Positions 29,371 through 59,890 of a stretch of 64,000 nt of DNA are shown one piece after another. The first letter of the stretch is position 1. Each line of letters opens with the position of its first letter. The notes under the pieces were generated by a model. That model was not told where the DNA came from. It ran no database searches and worked only from the letters and a program-made list of their open reading frames with translations. The stretch is from Eledone cirrhosa (taxonomy: Eukaryota): positions 278,008,001 to 278,072,000 of the forward strand of contig OZ024740.1 in NCBI GenBank assembly GCA_964016885.1, written 5' to 3'. Both the position numbers and the translations under genes were made by a program.

Positions 29371-29377
29371 CTATTCT

Positions 29378-32873: not shown

Positions 32874-32940
<67 letters not shown>

Positions 32941-33203: not shown

Positions 33204-33246
33204 ACGCTGTACTAGTTTCAAGCTTGTTAGCTATCGTCAGCAGCGT
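33204..33246 (-). ncRNA. Hammerhead family B
   Basis: Identical to 1262-1304. Confidence 0.85.
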
Positions 33247-33533
33247 ATACCTTCCTGCCAGATTGTTGAACGTATATACTTACCTTTTGCATATTAACGG
33301 CTGAGTAGTCCAATTTGCATATCGAGTGGGTTAATCGGCCGGGTGCACCGAAAACGATAGACGGAAAAAATGAAACGATATTTCATTTCCCACTCTTAGT
33401 ACGGCTGTTACTCAAATATAAGTATGTACACGTACATACATATATGTATACCGACGTACAGTAGTATGTATATATATATATATGTGTGTGTATGTATGTA
33501 TGTATGTATGTATGTATGTATGTATGTATGTAT

Positions 33534-34137
33534 GGTCACCACTTGGTGCTACTGGTAACATGTATCCCAGTACAACCTGTCTCATGGTCGGGTCGTTGGC
33601 GACTAAACTGGCAACCCCACCAAGGTTTCTTGGTGAGGAGGGTGACTTTGGACATCCTGCAGGACTAAAAACAAAACCTGTCAAAGGGCAAAGTAGCTCT
33701 TAAGAGTCAATGGCCATCCAAAATCACTGGGAGAGATGACCCCTTAGCCTTTGTCAAGGCAGAATTCTAGGAGAAGGAAAACTCTGATATAACACCTGCA
33801 ACCCTGATGGTATCCAATGATGTTGACTTGTTCTTCTTTTTGGTAAATATCATCTTGGTTAAGAGAGTGGGACTGGCTTTGTGCAGTGGCTTTGCTCACT
33901 ATAAAAGCTTCACGGCACAGGCATTGCTTTGTATCTGGAGATCTCTCTGCACTTGTCGTCACATGGTACCAAAGGTAAAGCACTATGTGTCAATAATTGT
34001 CACAAGTGTAGTGTGTGTACCAGAGTTTTCAAGTTGCTGGCTGGACTAAAATGTCACACTCGTTCAGCGCATCGGTAGGGGTTCTCCTACATGGATATAA
34101 AGTAGTGGCCGTACTCGAAAACGAGTTGCCAGCCACC
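33534..34137 (+). mobile_element. ~600-bp bipartite non-autonomous RTE-like element (X0), inserted in (TATG)n
   Basis: An RTE-type 5' UTR motif ctaggagaaggaaaactctga (33767-33787, recognised from memory) is followed by a terminal C2H2 finger remnant CSVC...KCHTRSAHR* (34007-34078), a ctcgaaaacgag hairpin and an (ATGT)n tail. Confidence 0.75.
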
Positions 34138-34189
34138 ATGTATGTATGTATGTATGTATGTATGTATGTATGTATGTATATATGAATAC

Positions 34190-35704: not shown

Positions 35705-35990
35705 GAAGACCCACTTCGGTCACGAATGACCATGGGATTTGCACCTAGAAAGTTTCCCTCCGAGGCACAAGTCCGGGAAAGGTTGTTTGAGGAAGATCAG
35801 CAGTCGCCCATGCATAACAGTCTCCCCTCTTCACGCCACCGATGATGTCCAAAGGAAAGGGTATGGCTAATACAGATTGGCAGTGACGTCGTAACTCATT
35901 TCTACAGCTGAGTAAACTGGAGCAACGTGAAATAAAGTGTCTTGCTCAAGGACACAACACATCACTAGGTCCGAGAATCGAACACGCAAC
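35705..35990 (-). mobile_element. SINE of the same family, truncated at the adjacent LINE fragment
   Basis: ggagcaacgtgaaataaagtgtcttgctcaagga...ggtccgagaatcgaac matches 12025-12090. Confidence 0.7.
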
Positions 35991-35994: not shown

Positions 35995-37488
35995 CAAATA
36001 ATGAACGCGTAACCAGGGAATACTACACCCGACTAAGACAGATTTTGTCATCGGAACTCTCTGAGCAAAACAAAACAGTGGCTCACAATGTGTGGAATAC
36101 TCAATTGGACGATAGACGAAATCCGAGCAGTCGATGTTGGAACTCGAAAAATAGTAAACAACACCGGCAACTTCCAGATCAACAGTGACATAGACCGCCT
36201 TTACTTGAAACGTAAGCAGGGAGGCAGAGGCCTAACATCAGTCCAGACAGCATTTGAATGTCACATCATATCCCTCCGACAACATCTACGAACCTCGAAG
36301 CGTAGGAGTCCGTCTCTCGAGCAAGTCTATCTGTATGAAACAGATAAGATCATAAGAGTTGGGAAGGAACTCCTCGAGAGATATTCTCTGTGTAATAATC
36401 AAAAGCTCACACCCAGGGAAGTCGCTCAGCAGTATCGCAGTGTATCCATGGATAAAAAACTGCATGCTTATCAGCAAATACATGGATATGTTACCAGGAA
36501 GCTCCAGAGTGAGAGTAATATAGATAAGGAAAGTAGTCTATCTTGGACCAACAACCGCTATATTGGCTCCCACTTTGAAGGATACGCTTTTGCAATCTAA
36601 GAACAGGAGATTAACACGAAATACCTGACTCACAAAAGAGATAGGGATGCAGACATAACGCCTAGATAAGATAACAAGCGCAGACTCAGCAGAACTAACA
36701 TCGAAGATATTATCCATGTCATCAGCAGCTGTTCAAAGATGTCATCGCGGTAGTATCTATCTATGAGGCATGATGTAGTGGCCAAAACACTGTACAATGC
36801 AGTTCGTAAAAAAGATAGCCCCGATAATAAACACATTAAAAGCTACAACAATGTGGAAGATATCCATGTACATAATATGAAAGAGTACTGGTGGAATGTT
36901 CCAGTAAAAATCCCAATAAAATTCAGGCATAACAGACCAGATATTATGGAGAAGAAAGCATGCACAGTAGTGGAAATTAGCTGCCCAGCAGATGCCAATA
37001 TAATATCAAAGATTAGTGAAAAGGAGAATATTTATGCAGAACTGATGAGAAATCTGCAGATACTCCACCCTGATTACACCTTCAGTTCAGATTTATGCCT
37101 GTGATTATTGGGGCACTGTGACACTGTGGTATATTAGTAAATACAAATCTTGAGAAGCTAAGCTTCACAGTAACAGAAAGAACACAACTAAGTGGGAAAT
37201 TACAAGTACAATTCATTAATGGAACAGTAAAAATAGGTAAAACATTCCAAACATTTTACATCTAATAACTGCATATACACATGTAGAGATACAAAGCATA
37301 TACACATGCACACATACAACTCAAAACATCCACATCCACACATACAATAACATCCATATCTACACATGCATACATACAAAATCTACCTAGTTGATGTGTA
37401 AATTCCAATGAGAGAGTCTTGTGTCTATGTTAGAAACCGACTCTCTCTCTATTGGGAAAGAATTTGGGAAATTATAAAACCAGAAGAA
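35995..37488 (+). mobile_element. Older, divergent R4/Dong-like LINE 3' fragment
   Basis: Motifs ILSSELS, DIDRLYLKRKQGGRGL, HFEGYAFAI, MRHD and RHNRPDI..VVEISCP are present, with many stops. It ends at (CATA)n 37489-37550. Confidence 0.85.
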
Positions 37489-37522
37489 CATACATACATA
37501 CATACATACATACATACATACA

Positions 37523-37553
<31 letters not shown>

Positions 37554-38016
37554 TTATGTATATTAAATATCTGTTCAAAGCGAAATACATTCTATACAAA
37601 TATATATACATGATATTATCGAATATGGCTATTGCACGATATAACATTATTAATAATTAGGAATTAATGCTATCGTGCAATGCCTGTACGTGAAGATTTT
37701 TTTAAAGTAATGAAAGACTGTGCACTGTGCCAATCTCACTCTCTGAGCGGCAGTAGCTATAACCCGAAAAGAAGAAAAGATCAACATCATCGGTAAATAC
37801 TGCGCCGGGGTTTTATGTCGGAGTTATCCGAGTTCCTGAGAATGCCCTGACAGAGGCTAGGGGTCCTTCACTCCCAGTGGGTATCCAGCCCGATTATTTC
37901 TCTGTCCCATCGCATATATATATACATATGTATGCATGTATATACATATATACAAATATACATATATATAAATGTATATACATATTTACAAATGTATATA
38001 CCTATTTACATATTAT

Positions 38017-38207
38017 TGGATGGCCGTTGACTCTTATGAGATCTACCGCCCTTTGTGAGGTTTTGTTTTTTGTCCTGCAGAGTGTCCAAAATAACCATCA
38101 TCACCAAGTGAACTTGGTGGGGTTGCCGGTTTGGTCGCCGACGACCCGACCATGTGACAGGTTGTAAACGGTTACATGTTACCGGTAGCACTCAAGAGTG
38201 ACCCGAC
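38017..38207 (-). mobile_element. Diverged 5' fragment of an X-related element
   Basis: Aligns to the first ~190 nt of X0 with many substitutions and lies next to (TACA)n. Confidence 0.75.
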
Positions 38208-38271
38208 ATATATATATATACATACATACATACATACATACATACATACATACATACATACATACATACAT

Positions 38272-41200
38272 ACCCAGAATTAGACTTTTCTCCAAAGCAT
38301 TTAAATGAACAGGCAAAACGTATCATTAGATGTAAATTGATACATCTAACGGAATTGAGTGATACTACAAATACAGCCCTTGTAGACAACCACCCCACCT
38401 CCACTGACAGACAAAGAGAATGGCCAGCTAAATCTAACAGTGAACAGCTCACCAACAATTTTGCTGAAATCCATCCCACTTCCACTGAAGAACAGCGAGA
38501 AAGGTCAGCTGACTCTAGTAGTAATTGTCACCACATCAACAGCGAGGCTGAAATTCATGACTCTACTGAACAAACAGAACACCGAAAACTTGTGGGCACC
38601 CTACAAGTGATATGGAACGATATGTTTCAAGAGATACACAGCCTTAATGTGAGTGACAGACCATACAACACTAGAGTCAGTAAAGAACCCACTAAATTGG
38701 AATTGGAAGCGGTGAACGAAATAGCTGGCAATTATCTGAAGGCTATACGATCTAAAGGTGTAGAAACGACATTTGAAACGCTTAATGTTTTGTTATATGT
38801 TTCAGCTGTCACATTGCTATCATATAACACACATCTAAAACCACGCAATCAAGATACAAACAGAAAGCCTGAACCAGCGTTGATGCGAAATTTAAAAACC
38901 AAAATGTTGTCCTTGAGACGAAGTATCTCACACATCGCAGTCGTTATGAAATGCAACATAGAGAGCAACTTCACACGACACCAAGAAGACCTAAAGAAAA
39001 ACTTAGAGAGACGATTTGGAGATACAAAATTTAAAACTTTGAACTCCAAATTACACCAGTTGAAACAACAACTCACAGCTACAACATAAAGACTAAAATA
39101 TAAGTCAACAGCACATAAACGACATGTGCTAAATAGATTGTTTGCCAGAGATCCTAAATCAGTTTATCGCAGCTTCGGTGGCAAAAGCTCAATCCCGGTA
39201 AACGACACCCCTTCGAAAGAACAGGTTGAGAGCTACTGGAGATCTGTATGGGAAACGGATGACGGATTCAACAGACAAGCTAATTGGCTAAAAGAACTGG
39301 AACAGGACTACTGCCAACATGTCCAGACAAAACAATATGACATAGATGGGTCAATACTGGAAACAGCTCTACAGAAAATGTCGAATAGGAAATCACCAGG
39401 CCCAGACATCATTACAGGATACTGGTTGAAGAATTTCACTTTCTATCGGCAAGATCTCATACGGCTGTTTACAGAAACCATTAAGGGCACACAAGAACTG
39501 CCCAGATGGTTATCAACTGCCACTACTCTCCTCATTCCCCAAAATATCCAAACCACCCTTGCTAAAAATTACCGCCCAATTGCCTGCCAAAACATCATGT
39601 ATAAATTATATACTGGGTGCCTTAACCTGTCCTTACAGGATCACTGTGCTACCAACAACATCATAACACCTGAACGAGCTGGTGGAAAGAGGGAGGTGTG
39701 GGGTTGCATAGATCACCTACTAACTAACAAAATGATTCAGGAAAAAACAACAAATAATCGCAGAAACATGACTGTCGTGTGGCTGGACTATCAAAAAGCA
39801 TTTGATAGTGTACCTCATGGGTGGATTATTAAGGCTTTACAGTTAGCTAAAGTCCCACAACCATTGGTAGCTGTTGTTGAACGCCTGACCAAGAACTGGT
39901 GAGAAGGAGCAGGTTAAGACTGATAAGATACATTACCAGAAGAGCATCTTTCAGGGTGATAGCTTGTCAGTGCTACTCTTCGTTCTCTCACTGAATCCAC
40001 TATCTTATCTACTCAGGAAACAAGGTGGACAAAGAAGTGGGCCCAGAAGTATCTCCCATCTTTTCTTTGTTGATGACCTGAAGTTGTATGGGCCAAATAT
40101 CAATGACATCAAGAAACAATTGGACCTCATTACACACTTTTCAACCGACATCAAAATGAAATTTGGTGAGTCCAAGTGTGCATATTTGGCAGTAAAACGT
40201 GGAAGAGCTGTGCCCTCCTCTAGAAATCTAGAGATGAACGGCCTGACAATACAACCTCTGCAGTCAGGTGACAACTACAGATATCTTGGACAGGATGAGA
40301 ATGTCAGATATGATGGACCCATAAATAAGGAGAGAACCAGAACTGAATACCTCAGAAGAGTAAAGAAAATATGGTCATCAGAACTGTCAGCATACAACAA
40401 ATTAATTGCCCACAATACTTATGCTGTGCCAATTCTAACGCCAACACTTGGCCTGCTGAACTGGTCATTGCAAGAACTAAGTGAGATGGATGTTAGAATT
40501 CGAAAACTTCTCAGTGTTACTGGCAACTTTAACATCAATGGTGATGTGGATAGGCTATACTTCTCACGCAAGGAAGGTGGCCGGGGTCTAAAATCAATAT
40601 TAACAACATATGAGACCCGGATAGTAACACTGAAGCAACACCTTCAACAGAGGAAAAAGGTTGGCAACCATCTTGCCCAGGTTTATGAACATGAAAAAAG
40701 ATATATCATTAGAATAGCGACAGATCTGGAGGATAGATATGGAATAAAGCCTGATATAAATCTCTCACCCAGAGAAATCGGAAGATCCTAGTCAATGTTC
40801 AAACAAGATTTAAAATATTGACCAATTTACAGAAAAAGTAGTGCATGGATACTCGAGGCGTAAAACACAGATCATAGAGGGGATAAACCACTCAAAAAGC
40901 CTGGCATGGAGTTCCGACAAGTTTATGACATCACACCTTGAGGGATATCTCTATGCAATACAGGAACAAGAACTCCCTACCAAATATCTGCTGCACAAAA
41001 GAGGAGGGCCAGCAGCTGACAATAAATGTAGGCTATGTAAAACAAAAATCGAGGATGTAAGCCACATTGTTGCCAGCTGCGAAAGAATGTCATCTCGCTA
41101 CAACCTCCCCATGAGACACGATGGGATAGCTAGAACCATCTGGAACGCACTTCGGGAAACAAAATTAACAACAAACGAGGAAGAATATATTGAGACAGAT

Positions 41201-41678
41201 GGCACTAAGGAATACTGGTGGAACCTGAAAATAAAAACTGCCACCAAATTAAAGCACAACCGGCCTGATATTGTAGTTTGGGACCATACATTGTAAACGT
41301 GTTCTGTTGTGGAGATCAGCTGCCCACTTGATGTAAAGGTTGTCAGAAAAATACAGAAGGAGGACATCTACGGACCATTGATGAAGATTTTACAAATCCA
41401 GTATCCAAGATACACCTTTAGCTTCATACCCATCATTATTGGTGCTACGGGTTATATACCAACCCGCTTAGACCAAAGTATGACTGAACTTGGATTTGCG
41501 GACAAAAAGCGCAGCTCCCTAATTCATAGTCTGCAAATAGCTGCGATAGCTGGTACCTTCAAAATTTGCAAAACATTCTTGCGATTCAAGGTATGACAAT
41601 TTCTTTTCTTTTACAACCTTGCCACCAGGAAGGTGGCCGGTCAAAAAAAATATACTCGAAATTAAGAGAAAGAGAAAA
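38272..41678 (+). mobile_element. R4/Dong-like LINE copy A, 5'-truncated and decayed
   Basis: ORFs 38337-41596 are near-identical to copy E. It begins right after (TACA)n at 38220-38271. It has stops at 39087, 40789 and 41294 and a ~23-bp deletion at 39900. Confidence 0.92.
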
Positions 41679-41978
41679 CATAGAAGTCAACAACCTTATG
41701 GGTGTGTAGCTAATATGCACTTTATAAATCCCATGTGCAAGGGGAACAATAAAAATATGCTATATTTGTCTGATGGACAACACGTAATTATTCACCGTTG
41801 TTCCTTCCTATTGTTGTTGTTTTGTTTGTATTTGTGTTTTTTTGGGGGGGAGGGGGGGGGGGGGGGGTAGAAACCAGTTTCGCCTTTATGAGAGGAATAC
41901 AAATAATTATGAAGGATAACACATACGAAAATACATATACATACATAAGAACATACATACGTACATACATACATACAT

Positions 41979-42583
41979 GGTGGCTGCCAACTCGTTTTCG
42001 AGTACGGCCACTACTTTATATCCATGTCCATGTAGGAGAACCGCTACCGATGCGCTGAACGAGTGTGACTTTTTAGTCCAGCCAGCGACTTGAAAACTCT
42101 GGTACAAACATTACACTTGTGACAATTACTGACACATAGTGCTGGGCCCATGGTACCATGTGACGACAAGTGCAGAGAGATCTCCAGATATAAAGCAATG
42201 ACTGTGCCGTGAAGCTTTTATAGTGAGCAAAGGCACTGCACAAATCCAGTCCCACTCTCTTAACCAAGATGATATTTAACAAAAGGTCAACATCATTGGA
42301 TACCGTCAGGGTTGCAGGTGTTATATCAGAGTTTTCCTTCTCCTAGAATTCTGCCTTGACAAAGTCTAAGGGGTCATCTCTCCCGGTGATTTTGGATGGC
42401 CATTGACTCTTAAGAGGTCCTTTGCCCTTTGACAGGTTTTGTTTTTAGTCCTGCAGGATGTCCAAAGTCACCCTCCTCACCAAGAAACCTTAGTGGGGTT
42501 GCCAGTTTAGTCGCCAACGACCCGACCATGAGACGGGTTGTACTGGGATACAGGTTACCAGTAGCACCAACTGGTGACCTGAC
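41979..42583 (-). mobile_element. RTE-derived element X1
   Basis: Reverse complement of 33534-34137, flanked by (TACA)n. Confidence 0.8.
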
Positions 42584-42628
42584 ATACATACATACATACA
42601 TTTATAGTACATACTTGCATACATATAT

Positions 42629-43232
42629 GGTGGCTGCCAACTCGTTTTCGAGTACGGCCACTACTTTATATCCATGTAGGAGAACCCCTACCGATGCGCT
42701 GAACGAGTGTGACTTTTTAGTCCAGCCAGCGACTTGAAAACTCTGGTACAAACACTACACTTGTGACAATTACTGACACATAGTGCTGGGCCCATGGTAC
42801 CATGTGACGACAAGTGCAGAGAGATCTCCAGATATAAAGCAATGCCTGTGCCGTGAAGCTTTTATAGTGAGCAAAGGCACTGCACAAAGCCAGTCCCACT
42901 CCTTTAACCAAGATGATATTTACCAAAAAGAAGAACAAGTCAACATCATTGGATACCATCAGGGTTGCAGGTGTTATATCAGAGTTTTCCTTCTCCTAGA
43001 ATTCTGCCTTGACAAAGGCTAAGGGGTCATCTCTCCCGGTGATTTTGGATGGCCATTGACTCTTAAGAGCTCCTTTGCCCTTTGACAGGTTTTGTTTTTA
43101 GTCCTGCAGGATGTCCAAAGTCACCCTCCTCACCAAGAAACCTTGGTGGGGTTGCCAGTTTAGTCGCCAACGACCCGACCATGGGACAGGTTGTACTGGG
43201 ATACATGTTACCAGTAGCACCAACTGGTGACC
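42629..43232 (-). mobile_element. RTE-derived element X2
   Basis: Reverse complement of X0, in tandem with X1. Confidence 0.8.
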
Positions 43233-43445
43233 ATACATATATACACACGTAGATACATAAATATACACAAATACACATACGTACATAAATTTATATATAT
43301 ACATCCATCCATCCATACGTACATACATACAGACACACATACATGCATACATACATACATACATACATACATACACACATACATACATACATACATACAT
43401 ACATACATACATACATACATACATACATACATACATACATACATT

Positions 43446-45432
43446 TACTAACTAACAAAATGATTCAGGAAAAAACAACAAAGAATCGCAGAAACATGAC
43501 TGTCGTGTGGCTGGACTATCAAAAAGCATTTGATAGTGTACCTCATGGGTGGATTATTAAGGCTTTACAGTTAGCTAAAGTCCCACAATCATTGGTAGCT
43601 GCCGTTGAACGCCTGACCAAGAACTGGTACACCAATTTGATCCTTAGAGGTGAGAAGGAGCAGGTTAAGACTGATAAGATACATTACCAGAAGAGCATCT
43701 TTCAGGGTGATAGCTTGTCAGTGCTACTCTTCGTTCTCTCACTGAATCCACTATCTTACCTACTCAGGAAACAAGGTGGACAAAGAAGTGGGCCCAGAAG
43801 TATCTCCCATCTTTTCTTTGTTGATGACCTGAAGTTGTATGGGCCAAATATCAATGACATCAAGAAACAATTGGACCTCATTACACAATTTCCGGCCGAC
43901 ATCAAAATGAAATTTGATGAGTCCAAGTGTGCATATTTGGCAGTAAAACGTGGAAGAGCTGTGCCCTCCTCTAGAAATCTAGAGATGAACGGCCTGACAC
44001 TACAACCTCTGCAGTCAGGTGACAACTACAGATATCTTGGACAGGATGAGAATGTCAGATATGATGGACCCATAAATAAGGAGAGAACCAGAACTGAATA
44101 CCTCAGAAGAGTAAAGAAAATATGGTCATCAGAACTGTCAGCATACAACAAATACATTGCCCACAATACTTATGCTGTGCCAATTCTAACGCCAACATTT
44201 GGCCTACTGAACTGGTCATTGCAAGAACTAAGTGATATGGATGTTAGAACTCGAAAACTTCTCAGTGTTACTGGCAACTTTAACATCAATGGTGATGTGG
44301 ATAGGCTATACTTCTCACGCAAGGAAGGTGGCCGGGGTCTAAAATCAATATTAACAACATATGAGACCCGGATAGTAACACTGATGCAACACCTTCAACA
44401 GAGGAAAAAGGTTGGCAACCATCTTGCCCAGGTTTATGAGCATGAAAAAAGAAATATCATTAGAATAGCGACTGATCTGGAGGAGAGATATGGAATAAAG
44501 CCTGATATAAATCTCTCACCCAGAGAAATCGGAGGATCCTATTCAATGTCCAAACAAGATAAGAAAATTGACCAATTTACAGAAAAAGTTGTGCATGGAT
44601 ACTTGAGGCGTAAAACACAGACCATAGAGGGGATAAACCACTCAAAAAAGCCTGGCATGGAGTTCCGACAAGTTTATGACATCACACCTTGAGGGATATC
44701 TCTATGCAATACAGGAACAAGAACTCCCTACCAAATATCTGCTGCACAAAAGAGGAGGGCCAGCAGCTGACAATAAATGTAGGCTATGTAAAACAAAGAT
44801 CGAGGATGTAAGCCACATTGTTGCCAGCTGCGAAAGAATGTCATCTCGCTACTACCTCCCCATGAGACACGATGGGATAGCTAGAACCATCTGGAACGCA
44901 CTTCGGAAAACAAAATTAACAACAAACGATGAAGAATATATTGAGACAGATGGCACTAAGGAATACTGGTGGAACCTGAAAATAAAAACTGCCACCAAAT
45001 TAAAGCACAACCGGCCTGATATTGTAGTTTGGGACCACACATTGAAAACATGTTCTGTTGTGGAGATCAGCTGCCCACTTGATGTAAACGTTGTCAGAAA
45101 AATACGGGAGAAGGAGGACATCTACGGACCATTGATGAGGAGTTTACAAATCCAGTATCCAAGATACACCTTTAGCTTCATACCCATCATTATTGGGGCT
45201 ACGGGTTATATACCAACCCGCTTGGACGAAAGTATGACTGAACTTGGATTTGCGGACAAAAAGCGCAGCTCCCTAATTCATAGTCTACAGATGGCTGCGA
45301 TAGCTGGCACCTTCAAAATTTGCAAAACATTGTTGCGATTCAAGGGATGACAATTTCTTTTCTTTTACAACCTTGCCACCAGGAAGGTGGCCGGTCAAAA
45401 AAAATATACTCGAAATTAAGAGAAAGAGAAAA
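43446..45432 (+). mobile_element. R4/Dong-like LINE copy B (3' half)
   Basis: RT and RLE ORFs at 43343-44692 and 44676-45350. It starts at tactaactaacaaaatg after (TACA)n. Confidence 0.92.
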
Positions 45433-45774
45433 CATAGAAGTCAGCAACCTTATGGGTGTGTAGCTAATATGCAATTTATAAATCCCATGTGCAAGGGGAA
45501 CAATAAAAATATGCTATATTTTTCTGATGGACAACACGTAATTATTCACCGTTGTTCTTTCCTATTGTTGTTGTTTTGTTTGTATTTGTGTTTTTTTGGG
45601 GGAGGCGGGGGGGGGGGGGGGGGGGGGTGTTTAGAAACCAGTTTCGCCTTTATGAGATGAATTCAAATAATTATCAAGGATAACGCATACAAAAATACAT
45701 ATACATACATACATACGTACATACATACGTACATACATACATACATACATACATACATACATACATACATACAT

Positions 45775-46372
45775 GGTGGCTGCCAACTCGTTTTCGAGTA
45801 CGGCCACTACTTTATATCCATGTAGGAGAACCGCTACTGATGCGCTGAACGAGTGTGACTTTTTAGTCCAGCCAGCGACTTGAAAACTCTGGTACAAACA
45901 CTACACTTGTGACAATTACTGACTCATAGTGCTGGGCCCATGGTACCATGTGATGACAAGTGCAGAGAGATCTCCAGATACAAAGCAATGCCTGTGCCGT
46001 GAAGCTTTTATAGTGAGCAAAGGCACTGCACAAATCCAGTCCCACTCTCTTAACCAAGATGATATTTAACAAAAAGTCAACATCATTGCATACCATCAGG
46101 GTTGCAGGTGTTATATCAGAGTTTTCCTTCTCCTAGAATTCTGCCTTGACAAAGGCTAAGGGGTCATCTCTCCCGGTGATTTTGGATGGCCATTGACTCT
46201 TAAGAGGTCCTTTGCCCTTTGACAGGTTTTGTTTTAGTCCTGCAGGATGTCCAAAGTCACCCTCCTCACCAAGAAACCTTAGTGGGATTGCCAGTTTAGT
46301 CGCCAATGACCCGACCATGAGACGGGTTGTACTGGGATACAGGTTACCAGTAGCACCAACTGGTGACCTGAC
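45775..46372 (-). mobile_element. RTE-derived element X3
   Basis: Reverse complement of X0. It shares a short deletion with X1 and X4. Confidence 0.8.
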
Positions 46373-46588
46373 ATACATACATACATACATTTATAGTACA
46401 TACTTGCATACATATATACACACGTAGATACATAAATATACACAAATACACATACGTACATAAATTTATATATATACATCCATCCATCCATACGTACATA
46501 CATACAGACACACATACATGCATACATACATACATACATACATACATACATACATACATACATACATACATACATACATACATACATT

Positions 46589-48575
46589 TACTAACTAACA
46601 AAATGATTCAGGAAAAAACAACAAAGAATCGCAGAAACATGACTGTCGTGTGGCTGGACTATCAAAAAGCATTTGATAGTGTACCTCATGGGTGGATTAT
46701 TAAGGCTTTACAGTTAGCTAAAGTCCCACAACCATTGGTAGCTGCCGTTGAACGCCTGACCAAGAACTGGTACACCAATTTGATCCTTAGAGGTGAGAAG
46801 GAGCAGGTTAAGACTGATAAGATACATTACCAGAAGGGCATCTTTCAGGGTGATAGCTTGTCAGTGCTACTCTTCGTTCTCTCACTGAATCCACTATCTT
46901 ACCTACTCAGGAAACAAGGTGGACAAAGAAGTGGGCCCAGAAGTATCTCCCATCTTTTCTTTGTTGATGACCTGAAGTTGTATGGGCCAAATATCAATGA
47001 CATCAAGAAACAGTTGGACCTCATTACACAATTTCCGGCCGGCATCAAAATGAAATTTGATGAGTCCAAGTGTGCATATTTGGCAGTAAAACGTGGAAGA
47101 GCTGTGCCCTCCTCTAGAAATCTAGAGATGAACGGCCTGACACTACAACCTCTGCAGTCAGGTGACAACTACAGATATCTTGGACAGGATGAGAATGTCA
47201 GATATGATGGACCCATAAATAAGGAGAGAACCAGAACTGAATACCTCAGAAGAGTAAAGAAAATATGGTCATCAGAACTGTCAGCATACAACAAATACAT
47301 TGCCCACAATACTTATGCTGTGCCAATTCTAACGCCAACATTTGGCCTACTGAACTGGTCATTGCAAGAACTAAGTGATATGGATGTTAGAACTCGAAAA
47401 CTTCTCAGTGTTACTGGCAACTTTAACATCAATGGTGATGTGGATAGGCTATACTTCTCACGCAAGGAAGGTGGCCGGGGTCTAAAATCAATATTAACAA
47501 CATATGAGACCCGGATAGTAACACTGATGCAACACCTTCAACAGAGGAAAAAGGTTGGCAACCATCTTGCCCAGGTTTATGAGCATGAAAAAAGAAATAT
47601 CATTAGAATAGCGACTGATCTGGAGGAGAGATATGGAATAAAGCCTGATATAAATCTCTCACCCAGAGAAATCGGAGGATCCTATTCAATGTCCAAACAA
47701 GATAAGAAAATTGACCAATTTACAGAAAAAGTTGTGCATGGATACTTGAGGCGTAAAACACAGACCATAGAGGGGATAAACCACTCAAAAAAGCCTGGCA
47801 TGGAGTTCCGACAAGTTTATGACATCACACCTTGAGGGATATCTCTATGCAATACAGGAACAAGAACTCCCTACCAAATATCTGCTGCACAAAAGAGGAG
47901 GGCCAGCAGCTGACAATAAATGTAGGCTATGTAAAACAAAGATCGAGGATGTAAGCCACATTGTTGCTAGCTGCGAAAGAATGTCATCTCGCTACTACCT
48001 CCCCATGAGACACGATGGGATAGCTAGAACCATCTGGAACGCACTTCGGAAAACAAAATTAACAACAAACGATGAAGAATATATTGAGACAGATGGCACT
48101 AAGGAATACTGGTGGAACCTGAAAATAAAAACTGCCACCAAATTAAAGCACAACCGGCCTGATATTGTAGTTTGGGACCACACATTGAAAACATGTTCTG
48201 TTGTGGAGATCAGCTGCCCACTTGATGTAAACGTTGTCAGAAAAATACAGGAGAAGGAGGACATCTACGGAACATTGATGAGGAGTTTACAAATCCAGTA
48301 TCCAAGATACACCTTTAGCTTCATACCCATCATCATTGGTGCTACGGGTTATATACCAACCCGCTTGGACGAAAGTATGACTGAACTTGGATTTGCGGAC
48401 AAAAAGCGCAGCTCCCTAATTCATAGTTTACAGATGGCTGCGATAGCTGGCACCTTCAAAATTTGCAAAACATTGTTGCGATTCAAGGGATGACAATTTC
48501 TTTTCTTTTACAACCTTGCCACCAGGAAGGTGGCCGGTCAAAAAAAATATACTCGAAATTAAGAGAAAGAGAAAA
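46589..48575 (+). mobile_element. R4/Dong-like LINE copy C (3' half)
   Basis: ORFs 46603-47835 and 47819-48493. It has the same 5' junction, the same +1 A frameshift and the same 3' flank as copy B, offset by 3143 bp. Confidence 0.92.
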
Positions 48576-48920
48576 CATAGAAGTCAGCAACCTTATGGGT
48601 GTGTAGCTAATATGCAATTTATAAATCCCATGTGCAAGGGGAACAATAAAAATATGCTATATTTTTCTGATGGACAACACGTAATTATTCACCGTTGTTC
48701 TTTCCTATTGTTGTTGTTTTGTTTGTATTTGTGTTTTTTGGGGGGAGGCGGGGGGGGGGGGGGTTTAGAAACCAGTTTCGCCTTTATGAGATGAATTCAA
48801 ATAATTATCAAGGATAACGCATACAAAAATACATATACATACATACATACGTACATACATACGTACATACATACATACATACATACATACATACATACAT
48901 ACATACATACATACATACAT

Positions 48921-49518
48921 GGTGGCTGCCAACTCGTTTTCGAGTACGGCCACTACTTTATATCCATGTAGGAGAACCGTTACTGATGCGCTGAACGAGT
49001 GTGACTTTTTAGTCCAGCCAGCGACTTGAAAACTCTGGTACAAACACTACACTTGTGACAATTACTGACACATAGTGCTGGGCCCATGGTACCATGTGAT
49101 GACAAGTGCAGAGAGATCTCCAGATATAAAGCAATGCCTGTGCCGTGAAGCTTTTATAGTGAGCAAAGGCACTGCACAAATCCAGTCCCACTCTCTTAAC
49201 CAAGATGATATTTAACAAAAAGTCAACATCATTGCATACCATCAGGGTTGCAGGTGTTATATCAGAGTTTTCCTTCTCCTAGAATTCTGCCTTGACAAAG
49301 GCTAAGGGGTCATCTCTCCCGGTGATTTTGGATGGCCATTGACTCTTAAGAGGTCCTTTGCCCTTTGACAGGTTTTGTTTTAGTCCTGCAGGATGTCCAA
49401 AGTCACCCTCCTCACCAAGAAACCTTAGTGGGGTTGCCAGTTTAGTCGCCAATGACCCGACCATGAGACGGGTTGTACTGGGATACAGGTTACCAGTAGC
49501 ACCAACTGGTGACCTGAC
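48921..49518 (-). mobile_element. RTE-derived element X4
   Basis: Near-identical to X3. Confidence 0.8.
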
Positions 49519-49669
49519 ATACATACATACATACATTTATAGTACATACTTGCATACATATATACACACGTAGATACATAAATATACACAAATACACATA
49601 CGTACATAAATTTATATATATACATCCATCCATACGTACATACATACAGACACACATACATGCATACAT

Positions 49670-50079
49670 GGTGGCTGCCAACTCGTTTTCGAGTACGGCC
49701 ACTACTTTATATCCATGTAGGAGAACCCCTACCGATGCGCTGAACGAATGTGACTTTAGTCCAGCCAGCGACTTGAAAACTCTGGTACAAAGACTACACT
49801 TGTGACCATTATTGACACATAGTGCAGGGCCCATGGTACCATGTGATGACAAGTGCAGAGAGATCTCCAGATATAAAGCAATGCCTGTGCTGTGAAGCTT
49901 TTATAGTGAGCAAAGGCACTGCACAAAGCCAGTCCCACTCTCTTAACCAAGATGATATTTACCAAAAAGAAGAACAGGTCAACATCATTGGATACCATCA
50001 GGGTTGCAGGTGTTATATCAGAGTTTTCCTTCTCCTAGAATTCTGCCTTGACAAAGGCTAAGGGGTCATCTCTCCCGGT
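49670..50079 (-). mobile_element. RTE-derived element X5, 5'-truncated
   Basis: Contains the 3' ~410 bp of X and ends at a long microsatellite. Confidence 0.8.
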
Positions 50080-50222
50080 ATATACATGTATATATACATA
50101 CATGCATATATACATATATACATACATACATGTATATATACATACATATACATACATACATACATACATACATACATACATACATACATACATACATACA
50201 TACACATACATACATATATATA

Positions 50223-50254
<32 letters not shown>

Positions 50255-51012
50255 CATATACATACATACATACATACATATACATACATACATATACATA
50301 CATATATACATATACATACATACATATACATACATATACATATACATACATACACACATACATACATATACATATACATACATATATATATACATACATA
50401 TACATATACATACATATATATATACATACATATATATATACATACATACATATACATACATATATATACATACATACATACATACATATACATACATACA
50501 TATACACATATACATACACATACATATATATACACATATACATATACATACATACACATACATACATACACATACATACATATATATATACATACATATA
50601 TACACATACATACATATACATATACATACATATATACATATACATACACACATATATACATACATACATACACACATACATACATATACATACATATACA
50701 CACATACATACATATACACACATACATACATATACATACATATACATACATACATACATATACATACACACATATACATACATATACATACATACATACA
50801 TATATACATACATACACACACATACATACATACATATATATACATATACATACATACATATACATACATACACATACACATATATACATACATACATACA
50901 TACACATACATACATACATACATATACATACATACATACATATACACACATACATATACATAGATACATATATATACATATACATACATACATATATATA
51001 CATACATACATA
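50080..51012. repeat. ~930-bp degenerate (TACA)/(TA)/(CA) compound microsatellite
   Basis: Seen directly; it consists almost only of T, A and C. Confidence 0.97.
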
Positions 51013-51013
51013 T

Positions 51014-51621
51014 GGTGGCTGCCAACTCGTTTTCGAGTACGGCCACTACTTTATATCCATGTAGGAGAACCCCTACCGATGCGCTGAACGAGTGTGACTT
51101 TTTAGTCCAGCCAGCGACTTGAAAACTCTGGTACAAACACTACACTTGTGACAATTACTGACACATAGTGCTGGGCCCATGGTACCATGTGACGACAAGT
51201 GCAGAGAGATCTCCAGATATAAAGCAATGCCTGTGCCGTGAAGCTTTTATAGTGAGCAAAGGCACTGCACAAAGCCAGTCCCACTCTCTTAACCAAGATG
51301 ATATTTACCAAAAAGAAGAACAAGTCAACATCATTGGATACCATCAGGGTTGCAGGTGTTATATCAGAGTTTTCCTTCTCCTAGAATTCTGCCTTGACAA
51401 AGGCTAAGGGGTCATCTCTCCCGGTGATTTTGGATGGCCATTGACTCTTAAGAGCTCCTTTGCCCTTTGACAGGTTTTGTTTTTAGTCCTGCAGGATGTC
51501 CAAAGTCACCCTCCTCACCAAGAAGCCTTGGTGGGGTTGCCAGTTTAGTCGCCAACGACCCGACCATGGGACAGGTTGTACTGGGATACATGTTACCAGT
51601 AGCACCAACTGGTGACCTGAC
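51014..51621 (-). mobile_element. RTE-derived element X6
   Basis: Reverse complement of X0, X2-like subtype. Confidence 0.8.
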
Positions 51622-51708
51622 ATGCATACATACATACATACATACATACATACATACATACATACATACATACATACATACATACATACATACATACATA
51701 CATACATT

Positions 51709-53684
51709 TACTAACTAACAAAATGATTCAGGAAAAAACAACAAAGAATCGCAGAAACATGACTGTCGTGTGGCTGGACTATCAAAAAGCATTTGATAGT
51801 GTACCTCATGGGTGGATTATTAAGGCTTTACAGTTAGCTAAAGTCCCACAACCATTGGTAGCTGCCGTTGAACGCCTGACCAAGAACTGGTACACCAATT
51901 TGATCCTTAGAGGTGAGAAGGAGCAGGTTAAGACTGATAAGATACATTACCAGAAGGGCATCTTTCAGGGTGATAGCTTGTCAGTGCTACTCTTCGTTCT
52001 CTCACTGAATCCACTATCTTACCTACTCAGGAAACAAGGTGGACAAAGAAGTGGGCCCAGAAGTATCTCCCATCTTTTCTTTGTTGATGACCTGAAGTTG
52101 TATGGGCCAAATATCAATGACATCAAGAAACAATTGGACCTCATTACACAATTTCCGGCCGACATCAAAATGAAATTTGATGAGTCCAAGTGTGCATATT
52201 TGGCAGTAAAACGTGGAAGAGCTGTGCCCTCCTCTAGAAATCTAGAGATGAACGGCCTGATACTACAACCTCTGCAGTCAGGTGACAACTACAGATATCT
52301 TGGACAGGATGAGAATGTCAGATATGATGGACCCATAAATAAGGAGAGAACCAGAACTGAATACCTCAGAAGAGTAAAGAAAATATGGTCATCAGAACTG
52401 TCAGCATACAACAAATACATTGCCCACAATACTTATGCTGTGCCAATTCTAACGCCAACATTTGGCCTACTGAACTGGTCATTGCAAGAACTAAGTGATA
52501 TGGATGTTAGAACTCGAAAACTTCTCAGTGTTACTGGCAACTTTAACATCAATGGTGATGTGGATAGGCTATACTTCTCACGCAAGGAAGGTGGCCGGGG
52601 TCTAAAATCAATATTAACAACATATGAGACCCGGATAGTAACACTGATGCAACACCTTCAACAGAGGAAAAAGGTTGGCAACCATCTTGCCCAGGTTTAT
52701 GAGCATGAAAAAAGAAATATCATTAGAATAGCGACTGATCTGGAGGAGAGATATGGAATAAAGCCTGATATAAATCTCTCACCCAGAGAAATCGGAAGAT
52801 CCTATTCAATGTCCAAACAAGATAAGAAAATTGACCAATTTACAGAAAAGTTGTGCATGGATACTTGAGGCGTAAAACACAGAGCATAGAGGGGATAAAC
52901 CACTCAAAAAAGCCTGGCATGGAGTTCCGACAAGTTTATGACATCACACCTTGAGGGATATCTCTATGCAATACAGGAACAAGAACTCCCTACCAAATAT
53001 CTGCTGCACAAAAGAGGAGGGCCAGCAGCTGACAATAAATGTAGGCTATGTAAAACAAAGATCGAGGATGTAAGCCACATTGTTGCCAGCTGCGAAAGAA
53101 TGTCATCTCGCTACTACCTCCCCATGAGACACGATGGGATAGCTAGAACCATCTGGAACGCACTTCGGAAAACAAAATTAACAACAAACGAGGAAGAATA
53201 TATTGAGACAGATGGCACTAAGGAACCTGAAAATAAAAACTGCCACCATATTAAAGCACAACCGGCCTGATATTGTTGTTTGGGACCACACATTGAAAAC
53301 GTGTTCTGTTGTGGAGATCAGCTGCCCACTTGATGTAAATGTTGTCAGAAAAATACAGGAGAAGGAGGACATCTACGGACGATTGATGAGGAGTTTACAA
53401 ATCCAGTATCCAAGATACACCTTTAGCTTCATACCCATCATTATTGGAGCTATGGGTTATATACCAACCCGCTTCGACCAAAGTATGACTGATCTTGGAT
53501 TTGCGGACAAAAGGCGCAGCTCCCTAATTCATAGTCTACAAATGGCTGCGATAGCTGGCACCTTCAAAATTTGCAAAACATTCTTGCGATTCAAGGGATG
53601 ACAATTTCTTTTATCTTACAACCTTGCCACCAGGAAGGTGGCCGGTCAAAAAAAATATACTCGAAATTAAGAGAAAGAGATAAA
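51709..53684 (+). mobile_element. R4/Dong-like LINE copy D (3' half)
   Basis: ORFs 51723-52868, 52938-53270 and 53203-53601. It has the same 5' junction as B and C, a private ~11-bp deletion near 53225, and its 3' end runs into (CATA)n. Confidence 0.92.
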
Positions 53685-53704
53685 CATACATACATACATA
53701 CATA

Positions 53705-56700
53705 ACATGGCGATCGTTGTGGTCAGTGTCCGATAATCGGACGTGTGTAATTACGCCTTACATGAAGGCAACATACCATATATTGGAAAAAGTTGAGCTA
53801 CATTACGCGGTAAGATTACATACAATAATTCTACATAAGTGTTTGAACTGTAAGTGTGTTGTAAAACACCTATTTATATGAACGATACATACACTTATGA
53901 TATATGAACGATACATACACTTTAACATATAAATGCAACGTTGTTATATTACATTTATAAAGAAATATACAAGTAACGTTTTCGATTCAGAAACAAAAAC
54001 ATAAGTGTTTGAACTGTGAATATGTTGTGAATAAGTTGTAGAACACCTATTTATATGAATGATACATAAACTTTAACATATAAATACAGCGTTGTTATAT
54101 TATATTACAATCATAAAGAAATATACTAAGTAACGGTTCTTTTTCTCCTCGATTCAAACGATTCAAGAACAACGTTTAAAACACAGTTGTAGAATTAAAA
54201 ACTAACTGAAAAGAAATATTACCCAAGCTGTGAATAACTTTAAATTTGATTCTGACAGAACTTTGTCGTAACTTTTAAAGAAGATCATCGACTATTTTGA
54301 AAAATAAATACGAAATATTAGTGAATAGACGAATTTATCATGGCAAAAAGTACAAGTCACCTTCGACCAAATCGCAATTACAACCGTTGTACACCGTGGA
54401 GCTACGAGCTTAACAAAGTATTATATGAAGCATACAAACAATCTGAACCCCAAAAGTTCGGTTTTATGCAAAGGCTAAAAACTTTATGGAACTCCAAACA
54501 CCCAGAATTAGACTTTTCTTCAAAGCATTTAAATGAACAGGCAAAACGTATCATTAGATGTAATTTGATACATCTAATGGAATTGAGTGATACTACAAAT
54601 ACAGCCCTTGTAGACAACCACCCCACCTCCACTGACAGACAAAGAGAATGGCCAGCTAATTCTAACAGTGAACAGCTCACCAACAATTTTGCTGAAATCC
54701 ATCCCACTTCCACTGAAGAACAGCGAGAAAGGTCAGCTGATTCTAGTAGTAATTGTCACCACATCAACAACGAGGCTGAAATTCATGACTCTACTGAACA
54801 AACAGAGCACCGAAAACTTGTGGGCTCCCTACAAGTGATATGGAACGATATGTTTCAAGAGATACACAGCCTTAATGTGAGTGACATACAACACTAGAGT
54901 CAGTAAAGAACCAACTAAATTGGAATTTGAAGCGGTGAACGAAATAGCTGGCAATTATCTGAAGGCTATACGATCTAAATGTGTAGAAACGACATTTGAA
55001 ACGCTTAATGTTTTGTTATATGTTTCAGCTGTCACATTGCTATCATATAACACACATCTAAAACCACGCAATCGAGATACAAACAGAAAGCCTGAACCAG
55101 CGTGGATGCGAAATTTAAAAACCAAAATTTTGTCCTTGAGACGAAGTATCTCACACATCGCAGTCGTTATGAAATGCAACATAGAGAGCAACTTCACACG
55201 ACACCAGGAATACCTAAAGAAAAAGTTAGAGAGACGATTTGGAGATACAAAATTTAAAACTTTGAACTCCAAATTACACCAGTTGAAACAACAACTCACA
55301 GCTACAACAGAAAGACTAAAATATAAGTCAACAGCACATAAACGACAAGTGCTAAATAGATTGTTTGCCAGAGATCCTAAATCAGTTTATCGCAGCTTCG
55401 GTGGCAAAAGCTCAATCTCTGTAAATGACACCCCTTCAAAAGAACAGGTTGAGAGCTACTGGAGATCTGTATGGGAAATGGATGACGGATTCAACAGACA
55501 AGCCAATTGGCTAAAAGAACTGGAACAGGACTACTGCCAACATGTCCAGACAAAACAATATGACATAGATGGGTCAATACTGGAAACAGCTCTACAGAAA
55601 ATGTCGAATAGGAAATCGCCAGGCCCAGACCTCATTACGGATACTGGTTGAAGAATTTCACTTTCTATCGGAGAGATCTCATACGGCTGTTTACGGAAAC
55701 CATTAAGGGCACACAAGAATTGCCCAGATGGTTATCAACTGCCTCTACTCTCCTCATTCCCAAAAATAGCCAAACCACCCTTGCTAAAATTTACCGCCCA
55801 ATTGCCTGCCAAAACATCATGTATAAATTATATACTGGGTGCCTTAACCTGTTCTTACAGAATCACTGTGCTACCGACAACATCATAACACCTGAGCAAG
55901 CTGATGGAAAGAGGGAGGTGTGGGGTTGCATAGATCACCTACTAACTAACAAAATGATTCAGGAAAAAAACAACAAAGAATCGCAGAAACATGACTGTTG
56001 TGTGGCTGGACTATCAAAAAGCATTTGAAAGTGTACCTCATGGGTGGATTGTTAAGGCTTTACAGTTAGCTAAAGTCCCACAACCATTGGTAGCTGCTGT
56101 TGAACGCCTGACCAAGAACTGGTACACCAGTTTGATCCTTAGAGGTGAGAAGGAGCAGGTTAAGACTGATAAGATACATTACCAGAAGGGCATCTTTCAG
56201 GGTGATAGCTTGTCAGTGCTACTCTTCGTTCTCTCACTGAATCCACTATCTTACCTACTCAGGAAACAAGGTGGACAAAGAAGTGGGCCCAGAAGTATCT
56301 CCCATCTTTTCTTTGTTGATGACCTGAAGTTGTATGGGCCAAATATCAATGACATCAAGAAACAATTGGACCTCATTACACAATTTTCAACCGACATCAA
56401 AATGAAATTTGGTGAGTCCAAGTGTGCATATTTGGCAGTAAAACGTGGAAGAGCTGTGCCCTCCTCTAGAAATCTAGAGATGAACGGCCTGACAATACAA
56501 CCTCTGCAGTCAGGGGACAACTACAGATATCTTGGACAGGATGAGAATGTCAGATATGATGGACCCATAAATAAGGAGAGAACCAGAACTGAATACCTCA
56601 GAAGAGTAAAGAAAATATTGTCATCAGAACTGTCAGCATACAACAAATACATTGCCCACAATACTTATGCTGTGCCAATTCTAACGCCAACATTTGGCCT

Positions 56701-57924
56701 ACTGAACTGGTCATTGCAAGAACTAAGTGAGATGGATGTTAGAACTCGAAAACTTCTCAGTGTTACTGGCAACTTTAACATCAATGGTGATGTGGATAGG
56801 CTATACTTCTCACGCAAGGAAGGTGGCCGGGGTCTAAAATCAATATTAACAACATATGAGACCCGGATAGTGACACTGAAGCAACACCTTCAACAGAGGA
56901 AAAAGGTTGGCAACCATCTTGCCCAGGTTTATGCCCATGAAAAAAGAAATATCATTAGAATAGCGACTGATTTGGAGGAGAGATATGGAATAAAGCCTGA
57001 TATAAATCTCTCACCCAGAGAAATCGCAAGATCCTATTCAATGTTCAAACAAGATAAAAAATTGACCAATTTACAGAAAAAGTTGTGCATGGATACTTGA
57101 GGCGTAAAACACAGACCATAGAGGGGATAAACCACTCAAAAAGCCTGGCATGGAGTTCCGACAAGTTTATGACATCACACCTTGAGGGATATCTCTATGC
57201 AATACAGGAACAAGAACTCCCTACCAAATATCTGCTGCACAAAAGGGGAGGGCCAGCAGCTGACAATAAATGTAGGCTATGTAAAACAAAGATCGAGGAT
57301 GTAAGCCACATTGTTGCCAGCTGCGAAAGAATGTCATCTCGCTACTACCTCCCCATGAGACACGATGGGATAGCTAGAACCATCTGGAACGCACTTCGGA
57401 AAACAAAATTAACAACAAACGAGGAAGAATATATTGAGACAGATGGCACTAAGGAATACTGGTGGAACCTGAAAATAAAAACTGCCACCAAATTAAAGCA
57501 CAACCGGCCTGATATTGTAGTTTGGGACCACACATTGAAAACGTGTTCTGTTGTGGAGATCAGCTGCCCACTTGATGTAAACGTTGTCAGAAAAATACAT
57601 GAGAAGGAGGACATCTACGGACCATTGATAAGGAGTTTACAAATCCAGTATCCAAGATACACCTTTAGCTTCATACCCATAATTATTGGTGCTACGGGTT
57701 ATATACCAACCCGCTTGGACCAAAGTATGACTGAACTTGGATTTGCGGACAAAAAGCACAGCTCCCTAATTCATAGTCTACAAATGGCTGCGATAGCTGG
57801 TACCTTCAAAATTTGCAAAACATTCTTGCGATTCAAGGGATGACAATTTCTTTTCTTTTACAACCTTGCCACCAGGAAGGTGGCCGGTCCAAAAAATATA
57901 CTCGAAATTAAGAGAAAGAGAAAA
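53705..57924 (+). mobile_element. Apparently full-length R4/Dong-like RLE non-LTR retrotransposon (copy E), flanked by (CATA)n
   Basis: It has a ~635-bp 5' UTR, a single ORF broken into frames 54340-57843 and a short 3' UTR ending ...gagaaagagaaaa. (CATA)n lies at 53685-53704 and 57925-57950. Confidence 0.92.
54340..57843 (+). pseudogene. RT-RLE polyprotein (~1170 aa) with about 4 frameshifts
   Basis: An N-terminal Myb-like segment (PWSYELN...GFMQRLKTLW...LNEQAKRI) is followed by KSPGPD, YRPIAC, WLDYQKAF, GIFQGDSLS and SHLFFVDDLKLY (RT). The C-terminus has CRLC..H...C (CCHC), RHD and HNRPDIVVWD..VVEISCP..EK (PD-(D/E)xK nuclease). Indels relative to sibling copies lie near 54885, 55637, 55970 and 57060. 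Confidence 0.93.
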
Positions 57925-58404
57925 CATACATACATACATACATACATACAGGCATTCATACATATATAGCGGTTTTATATTAAAATTACTATATTTTGCC
58001 GAACGAAGTAAAATATTATAATTCTTTTAAAAAATCAATGCAAAATGTATTTTCAGTTTTCCCTTGTTATATACAAGTTGAAAATGACGCTAATATATTC
58101 CTTTACTTTCATTCTAAGACATAAAAAGGAAGAACATTATTTTCCTTTAGAATATCAAATTACAAAGATAATAGCGTTGGGAGAATCTTAACATTTATGA
58201 AATGACTTAAGCAAAAACCCTTCAAGTATCAATATACTTGTTCTATCCTCTATAATAAAATGATAGAAATGGAAACTCTTATATAATCTAATGTATTATT
58301 CCTTCTTAGTTGTTCACATATGTATTCACTGATTCTAACAAAGATATTTTGTTCTCTTCTACATTAATGATCCAGACGAATGAATATTTCCTGGGTATTC
58401 ATAC

Positions 58405-58529: not shown

Positions 58530-58636
58530 CACACAGAGATTGGACCGTCAATCGATCTGTTTAATCAGCTCTTAAATATTACTGGAATTCTATAAGAATT
58601 AAGCTTCTTTAATTTTCGGCAAAAGCAGGGAAGTGT

Positions 58637-59890
58637 GTGGTCTTGATAAACGCTAACAAGAGAGATTTATTTATAATTAATTCGCTACATAGAAAAATAC
58701 CTGGTGTAACCGGAGGATTATATCGTGATGACATGCTTTTACTTATTGAAAATAATAACTCTGAACTAAATAGGAAAAGAAAACAAATTATACAATTTTT
58801 TAATCACCTTAATCTAAAAATAGAAATAGAGAATAACCATAGAATAGTCAATTTCCTAGATGTAACACTAAATCTCAACACATGTCTTCACTATCCTTTT
58901 CACAAACTAAATGAAAACTTGAATTATGTCAGTTTTAACTCTAATCACCCCAGATCTGTTAAAAATACTATAGTGAACTCTGTTCAAGAACGTATCTCAA
59001 GAATTTCATCTAATAAAAATATTTTCGACGAAAAAGCGCAGTATTACAATGAAGCGTTAGCTAGAGCAGGATATAGTGATAAAATTATGTACATCGATAA
59101 TAATAGGCAAACTAACCAATATAACAACAATTTTAATTACGGTAACAACTTTAACAACTATAATAGAAAACATTACAATAATTCCAAAAGCCAGAAAAGA
59201 AATAGAACTAGAAATATAATATGGTTTGCACCCCCTTTCTCACTAAATATTAAAACCCACATTGCTAAACTATTTTTTAATGCTCTTGACAAACGTTTCC
59301 CTAGAACACATAAATATCACTCAATTTTTAATAGACATACTATAAAATTAACTTACTCGTCCACCAAAAACTTAGCACAAAATATTAACTGAATAAATAA
59401 TAGGAATCTAAAACCTAGCCAAAATACCGATAATAGCCTAAACAATATTCAACTAAACAACTGTAACTGTAGAAATAAATCTAAATGTCCGTTAAATAAC
59501 AATTGCTTAGTTAAAAATATAATATACAATTGTAATGTTAAAACTGACTTAAATTCTTTTAACTATGTTGGTTCCACCTCGACAGAATTTAAACTTCGCT
59601 ATAATAATCATAAGAATTCTTTCACAGATCCAGGCAAAAAATCTTCAACTTCACTATCAGGCTTACTCTGGCAACTTAAACATGATAACGTTGGATATTC
59701 GTTGTTTTGGAATATAGTCTCAAGAGGGATTCCTTTTAATTCCTCATCTGAGACATGTGACCTCTGCGTGGAGGAGATATTCTTTATATTAAAATCTAAA
59801 AATTCCCTTAATCTAAGGAGCAATGTATTCAGTTGCTGCAGACATAGATTGAACTCAACGTTTAAATATAAATATAAATTTAAAATGTAG
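58637..59890 (+). pseudogene. 5'-truncated Naiad-like PLE ORF (RT C-terminal half plus GIY-YIG) with one in-frame TGA
   Basis: GGLYRDD, VNFLDVTLNL, SNHP and IIWFAPPFS precede a TGA at 59390-59392. The same frame then continues through CNCRNKSKCPLNNNC, YVGST, CDLC and CCRHR to TAG at 59890. Confidence 0.9.

Follow-up and report, generated by a model that had tools for sequence, protein, structure and literature searches.

The window analysed here is a 64,000-nucleotide (nt) stretch of the Eledone cirrhosa genome (contig OZ024740.1). It holds five young copies (A to E) of a long interspersed nuclear element (LINE) with a restriction-like endonuclease (RLE), called family 1 below, together with an older relative, family 2. 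Our results demonstrate that the genome-wide, orientation-specific association of these two RLE LINE families with (TACA)n microsatellites is real, and enzymatic targeting is its most likely cause.

Copies and repeat tracts in the window

According to a first-pass annotation of the window, all five young copies directly follow (TACA)n, and self-comparison of the sequence bore this out: A is preceded by (ACAT)13, E by (TACA)4, and B, C and D by (TACA)16, (TACA)16 and (TACA)20 plus one extra T. As the same annotation also stated correctly, the 3' end is followed by (CATA)n in D, in E and in the older relative and by a single CATA in the other three copies (A, B and C), and all window copies lie in one orientation, on the TACA strand. 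The 5' end of the family-2 copy (35996) is preceded by a different short repeat (35919-35990), not TACA. Copy E is full-length, with a 5' end identical to that of 24 full-length genomic copies.

A single start base is common to B, C and D, which also have derived substitutions in common up to about column 1866 of 1990, and the B and C units are tandem duplicates of ~3.1 kb that are 98.7% identical. These common junctions and flanks, and the tandem duplication, rule out that the five window copies represent five events. With a single 5' junction for B, C and D together and a single 3' flank for A, B and C, three independent junctions are left per end, and the window alone is weak evidence for targeting.

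Table 1. Features of the window, with positions counted from its first nucleotide
Feature	Position	Strand	Remarks
Family-2 LINE, 3' part	35996..37488	+	90% to full-length genomic copy; then (CATA)16; 5' end not at TACA
(CATA)16 tract after family-2 copy	37489..37552	+	
(TACA)13 tract 5' of A	38219..38271	+	
Copy A, 5'-truncated family-1 LINE	38272..41678	+	single CATA after
3' spacer common to A, B, C units	41679..41977, 45433-45773, 48576-48919	+	~300 nt
(TACA)16 tract 5' of B	43380..43444	+	
Copy B, 5'-truncated family-1 LINE	43446..45432	+	5' junction common to C, D; 3' flank common to A, C
(TACA)16 tract 5' of C	46523..46587	+	
Copy C, tandem duplicate of B	46589..48575	+	99.5% identity to B
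(TACA)20 tract 5' of D	51627..51707	+	
Copy D	51709..53684	+	truncation point that of B, C; own (CATA)n 3' tract doubles as E upstream tract
Short (CATA)n tract between D, E	53685..53702	+	
Copy E, full-length family-1 LINE	53703..57924	+	5' untranslated region (UTR), frameshifted open reading frame (ORF) 54340-57843, ~80-nt 3' UTR
Copy E, N-terminal three-helix Myb/SANT-like domain (predicted, approximate)	54373..54585	+	residues ~12-82; fold from intact genomic copy
Copy E, CCHC knuckle and RLE	57058..57843	+	C-terminal frame
(CATA)6 tract after E	57925..57950	+	
~605-bp non-coding retroelement	42628..43232	-	shares tracts, opposite polarity
Further 605-bp element copies	41978-42584, 45774-46373, 48920-49519, 49669-50079 (truncated), 51013-51622	-	
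605-bp element copy on other strand	33534-34138		

(TACA)n at junctions across the genome

Searches of the 3.0 Gb genome with the 3' ends gave 926 (family 1) and 1735 (family 2) first-look candidates, 40 of each being scored. Sample 1 of family 1 consists of the 39 matches outside the window minus L060, a duplicate of L059 (38 copies), and sample 2 of 38 further loci from the top of a scored list of 150 matches, with a tandem array (L323-L324) left out. For family 2, 41 matches minus the window copy, one partial match and three tandem duplicates left 36. A junction was scored as positive when the 25 nt flank held at least 2 TACA units, and the background consisted of 79,800 windows from 20 fixed 10-kb stretches (200 kb).

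This tabulation, which the first-pass annotation had proposed, found TACA upstream of 73/76 family-1 copies vs 1.4% of background windows, and the repeat in the opposite orientation in 0/76. Upstream junctions were positive in 37/38 copies of sample 1 and 36/38 of sample 2, and downstream junctions in 37/38 and 34/38, respectively. The element has a fixed 3' end, a variable 5' end and no terminal repeats, and 52/76 copies are truncated; the truncated copies are positive upstream in 22/22 cases in sample 1, with 22 different break points, and in 28/30 in sample 2. The contrary outcome named with the first-pass annotation, that most copies would lack TACA at the 5' junction and CATA would be a mere 3' tail, was not what we found: 50 of the 52 truncated copies have TACA, and since their many break points differ and yet adjoin (TACA)n, CATA is not merely a 3' tail. 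CATA begins the 3' flank in 69/76 copies (38/38 in sample 1 and 31/38 in sample 2).

TACA is preferred at the junctions although the TA repeat is commoner, occupying ~5 times as many bases as TACA in the background (7910 vs 1588). Insertion into (TAA)n, as in Dong elements, was not seen at these junctions, which are (TACA)n; no rRNA match was found in window positions 33000-58500, and the junctions of the 76 dispersed copies are microsatellite, not 28S ribosomal DNA (rDNA). In sequencing run X1, contig depth rises ~50-fold from 5' to 3' of the element, and CATA tracts also follow the element's 3' end in runs from three different organisms (organism codes A, D and E).

The second family shares the (TACA)n target of family 1. 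The TACA criterion is passed by 28/34 scorable 5' ends and 31/36 3' ends, and the random 200 kb happened to include two family-2-type copies, both with TACA upstream. Family-2 copies are 93-97% identical to each other and have ~51% amino acid (aa) identity to family 1 from the reverse transcriptase (RT) onward.

The flanks also bear on the age of the tracts. The two flanks of one copy have more repeat variants in common than the flanks of different copies do (sample 1, p 5e-5; pooled, p 1e-4 to 5e-5), and the variant 6-mers common to both flanks of a copy number 2.36 vs 0.99 (pooled, p 2e-4). Because the two flanks of a copy have variants in common, the tract appears to be older than the insertion. 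At L038, L041, L046, L064 and L065, young family-1 copies also lie inside tracts that precede older family-2 copies. Perfect TACA runs have a median length of 42.5 nt upstream vs 15.5 nt downstream (p 3e-6), and the upstream tract is also purer. This difference accounts for single-CATA ends such as that of A as insertions at the end of a tract, and it fits the upstream recognition described for R2Bm in excerpts of PMC10499050.

A target duplication of fixed length was sought and rejected: 57 copies have an interruption within 24 nt of the 3' junction, and in 9 of them a match spans it; most of these matches are boundary shifts or periodic tracts, with no consistent target duplication. L046 and L052 carry short duplicated element pieces 5' of their full-length ends, which suggests template jumps in 5' joining. 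The array left out of sample 2 (G000:C3 199889500-199903500) consists of ~4-kb units, each one a family-1 copy with a truncation point common to all, and its upstream repeat lengthens the open frame to 1177-1211 aa.

Encoded protein and proposed mechanism

An intact ORF of 1169 aa is present in six sampled family-1 copies, and of the 150 scored matches, 38 fall within frames that are open for at least 1172 aa. Six of seven intact family-1 copies are 99.4-99.8% identical mutually and the seventh is 98.6-98.8% identical; judged from these sequences, family 1 is recently spreading, with many intact copies. The predicted RLE architecture and ~1170-aa length hold. Copy E had been put forward as the source of the full protein, and its length was rightly judged, whereas its own ORF is in several frameshifted pieces and the intact copies lie elsewhere.

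The protein is a single long ORF with a non-LTR-type RT (Pfam match, RVT_1), and its best sequence and predicted-fold matches are R2 proteins (fold pLDDT 86.6). The domain order is Myb-like N terminus, RT, CCHC knuckle and RLE. Both the knuckle, CX2CX8HX4C (C980-C983-H992-C997), and the RLE motifs (RH1009, PD1060, E1075 and K1091xxxY) are conserved in homologues and follow the definitions for RLE LINEs in PMC5678591. No fold of an apurinic/apyrimidinic endonuclease (APE) was found, the N terminus being helical and the endonuclease a C-terminal RLE, and the N-terminal alignment contains no Cys/His zinc-finger pattern. Residues 22-74 are predicted to form three helices that, folded alone, have their matches chiefly among DNA-binding domains of the Myb/SANT type, such as those of Zeste and TRF1. 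The N-terminal domain also has a Rap1-Myb cluster as a lead (0.85); Pfam gave nothing beyond noise on the N-terminal part. The Myb-like identity of this modelled domain is a lead, not proof. The 3' UTR folds better than shuffles in both families (z -3.5 and -3.2), and an Rfam search returned sub-threshold repeat artefacts only, with no ribozyme or tRNA head.

We propose, with a probability of about 0.8, that a single-ORF RLE LINE inserts into (TACA)n in one orientation, likely through binding of the upstream tract by the predicted Myb-like domain, a nick on the TGTA strand and priming there. In this scheme of R2-type target-primed reverse transcription, the predicted domain would bind the upstream (TACA)n tract, and the endonuclease would nick the bottom (TGTA) strand at TATG|TATG, or, for an RNA with CAUA at its end, at most 4 nt away. 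RNA recognition for priming would rely on the structured 3' UTR. Microhomology of 1-3 nt would then join the 5' end to the upstream tract, and a long target duplication would not arise; these three points are proposed by analogy with R2Bm. A tract would remain on both sides of every insertion, so that TACA-using elements would pile up in arrays and be tandemly duplicated, as in the window.

Several points weigh against this interpretation. Both family-1 samples consist of the best-scoring, hence youngest, copies, and the sample-1 query ended in CA, which favoured a CATA start (38/38 vs 31/38). Six of the 34 family-2 5' ends fail, four of them without any repeat. The sharing of flank variants is not significant in sample 2 alone (p 0.12 and 0.07). 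Three of the four perfect TACA runs of at least 24 nt in the random 200 kb adjoin these elements, and since long pure runs are rare away from them, repeat addition or expansion at or after insertion also fits. The microhomology of 1-3 nt at 17/17 phased truncated junctions (5/22 could not be phased) was taken from BLAST boundaries. No orthologous empty site was obtained, the contigs of the compared runs being unable to bridge the tracts; from runs X10 and X14 came a single contig apiece, neither of which contained the junction. Finally, the best match of the N-terminal domain (Z 5.8, root mean square deviation 2.5, 64 aligned) falls short of Z 8, from which a match would be distinct from common folds, and Foldseek gave nothing for this domain at E 0.001 or better.

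The long upstream tracts raise the possibility that a short CATA-like site suffices and that most of the upstream (TACA)n is made by the element in 5' joining, through slippage or template jumping. Upstream runs are indeed far longer than the usual genomic tract (at least 24 nt in 45/76 copies, with 4 such runs per 200 kb), some 3' flanks have only 1-2 units (window copy A, L287, L303 and L306), and the duplicated pieces at full-length L046 and L052 point the same way. We nevertheless consider this unlikely, as copies in compound tracts (L032, L033, L055, L059, L292 and L315) are flanked on either side by one and the same interrupted pattern, without any long pure run, and as young copies occupy upstream tracts that belong to older family-2 copies. 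A mixed version, with real targeting plus some expansion, is possible.

Strict orientation and the CATA start at 69/76 3' junctions would also be expected if a (CAUA)n tail annealed to TGTA at loosely specific nicks, as for repeat-tailed LINEs. Such RNA-DNA pairing is very improbable as the source of the pattern, because the 3' flank leaves pure CATA after one unit in 7/38 copies at position 5, so that any tail would be about one unit long, and because the signal is stronger upstream, where a tail cannot pair. Unspecific insertion followed by preferential survival in repeat-rich, low-constraint DNA would suit a microsatellite-rich genome but is scarcely credible, given that near-identical, very young copies are already patterned and that the pattern is exact to the junction, strand-specific (0/76 reversed) and directed to TACA over the commoner TA.

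Neighbouring elements, relatives and known systems

The tracts are also used by the ~605-bp non-coding retroelement (Table 1), and at least three element families thus occupy one microsatellite niche. Among its copies (including L070-L099), 27/34 one-ended pieces keep the end adjoining the expected 3' tail, which indicates that its sense strand carries TGTA. It is less strict, with 16/28 and 18/27 flanks passing and many being pure TA, and filled vs empty duplicate sites in the window reveal target duplications of 9-10 bp. Its ends fold no better than shuffles. The element was probably moved by a different, APE/RTE-type LINE, although that partner was not found; we take it to resemble elements mobilised in this way. 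A diverged relative (~81% over 193 nt) lies directly 5' of copy A (37611-38208), and similar diverged relatives flank other insertions. Two copies of the 605-bp element flank a compound TA/TACA/CACA tract of ~930 bp (50080-51012).

Elsewhere in the window, a ~420-bp unit with direct repeats of ~85 bp that end in TA/TACA mixes occurs at ~990-1830 and ~32930-33490; the two places are 99% identical, and an inverted partial copy lies at 1619-1827. Fragmented ORFs without a Pfam match (58613-59890, 28559-29434 on the minus strand, and 3286-3747) may be pieces of Penelope-type RT and GIY-YIG domains.

Among the 120 protein matches listed of 278, the nearest one that carries a name comes from Argonauta hians (66%), and none is a named R4, Dong or Rex6 protein. 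In metagenomes, 48 of 80 loci with relatives have a scorable 3' end (22 AAT, 3 ATT, 2 CTTA, 2 other and 19 with no repeat), each repeat label resting on 1-2 junctions because metagenome contigs are single assemblies. (CTTA)n flanks occur in marine metagenome relatives upstream of L170, on both sides of L172 and downstream of L176, and two CATA units close L171; the repeat at the end of L243 is (ACA)n. In the RT tree, one clade (SH-aLRT 99) unites both octopod families with the CTTA and L171 loci, beside a large, Dong-like AAT-flanked group (support 87); 23/28 rows of this clade are without a repeat label, and the tree is rooted on three long-branch outgroups and includes no named R4, Dong or Rex6 element.

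Sisterhood of family 1, with the Argonauta protein, and family 2 was rejected (p-AU 0.0016). The first-pass annotation had read the two families as divergent subfamilies that retained one specificity; both are indeed on TACA, but they are separate lineages, not sister subfamilies. With (CTTA)n relatives among two TACA lineages, retention of TACA and its independent adoption are both possible. An NR[D/N]Y arm precedes the first helix in close relatives and is absent from the TAA-flanked group. Tentatively, and at rather less than even odds, these sequences may represent an unrecognised, widespread tetranucleotide-targeting branch of Dong/R4, on (TACA)n in two separate lineages of octopods and on (CTTA)n elsewhere among marine hosts, whose target switches would be written in a small Myb-like domain with a clade-specific NR[D/N]Y arm, and which would still be active and be a main builder of long (TACA)n tracts in this genome.

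These results bear on the origin of long TACA tracts. They also imply that, with repeats as flanks, such copies will escape insertion-calling tools. Related proteins on TAA, CTTA and TACA, with their many intact copies and a small candidate domain for DNA binding, form a series in which change of specificity could be tested, and in RLE elements such change is a live question for R2-based gene insertion.

R4/Dong elements have a single ORF with a C-terminal RLE. Like Dong, the present element inserts into a microsatellite, and its distant database relatives end in AAT-type repeats at 22 of 48 scorable 3' ends (ATT at 3 more) and share its N-terminal domain. Excerpts of PMC3812793 describe Bombyx Dong, DongAg and DongBg as (TAA)n-specific; the present target, in contrast, is (TACA)n, and the element belongs to a clade of its own (SH-aLRT 99), in which (CTTA)n flanks the remaining scorable members. 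In Octopus vulgaris, five recently active Dong-R4 families with 1129 near-full-length insertions of ~4.2 kb each are reported in excerpts of PMC13282606, and those of PMC9115989 note a full-ORF Dong consensus in Octopus bimaculoides. Matched by description, not sequence, these families are probably the same as or close to ours, and the present data give a target site to a LINE group that ranks among the most active in octopod genomes; the excerpts of PMC13282606, PMC9115989, PMC8967140, PMC12988792 and PMC10294476 do not mention one for octopus Dong-R4. Our literature search found no report of an RLE element on TACA; Repbase, Dfam and supplements lay outside it and could hold such an annotation. 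(TACA)n is likely a new target for elements of the Dong/R4 kind, as placed by a tree without named clade references.

R2 proteins (R2Bm and R2Tg) are the best sequence and structure matches and share the RT-linker-CCHC-RLE order, with a Myb domain that reads upstream DNA in R2. According to excerpts of PMC10499050, the Myb and zinc-finger domains of R2Bm read DNA 22-34 bp upstream of the nick, and downstream DNA is dispensable. The present protein differs in its identity of only ~17-20%, in the lack of a visible N-terminal zinc finger and in its dispersed microsatellite target, as opposed to 28S rDNA. Microsatellite-specific RLE elements are also described in excerpts of PMC4640811, namely Togen and some HERO families; Togen uses (TG)n, unlike the (TACA)n of the present element.

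Waldo elements belong to the R1 clade and have two ORFs. The same repeat, (TACA)n being (ACAT)n, lies at both junctions of the present element, and excerpts of PMC3812793 give WaldoAg1, WaldoAg2 and WaldoFs1 as ACAY-specific elements with an APE endonuclease, in agreement with the first-pass annotation. Since Waldo uses an APE and the present element has one ORF with an RLE, the common target appears convergent, an RLE element having arrived at the repeat used by APE-type Waldo.
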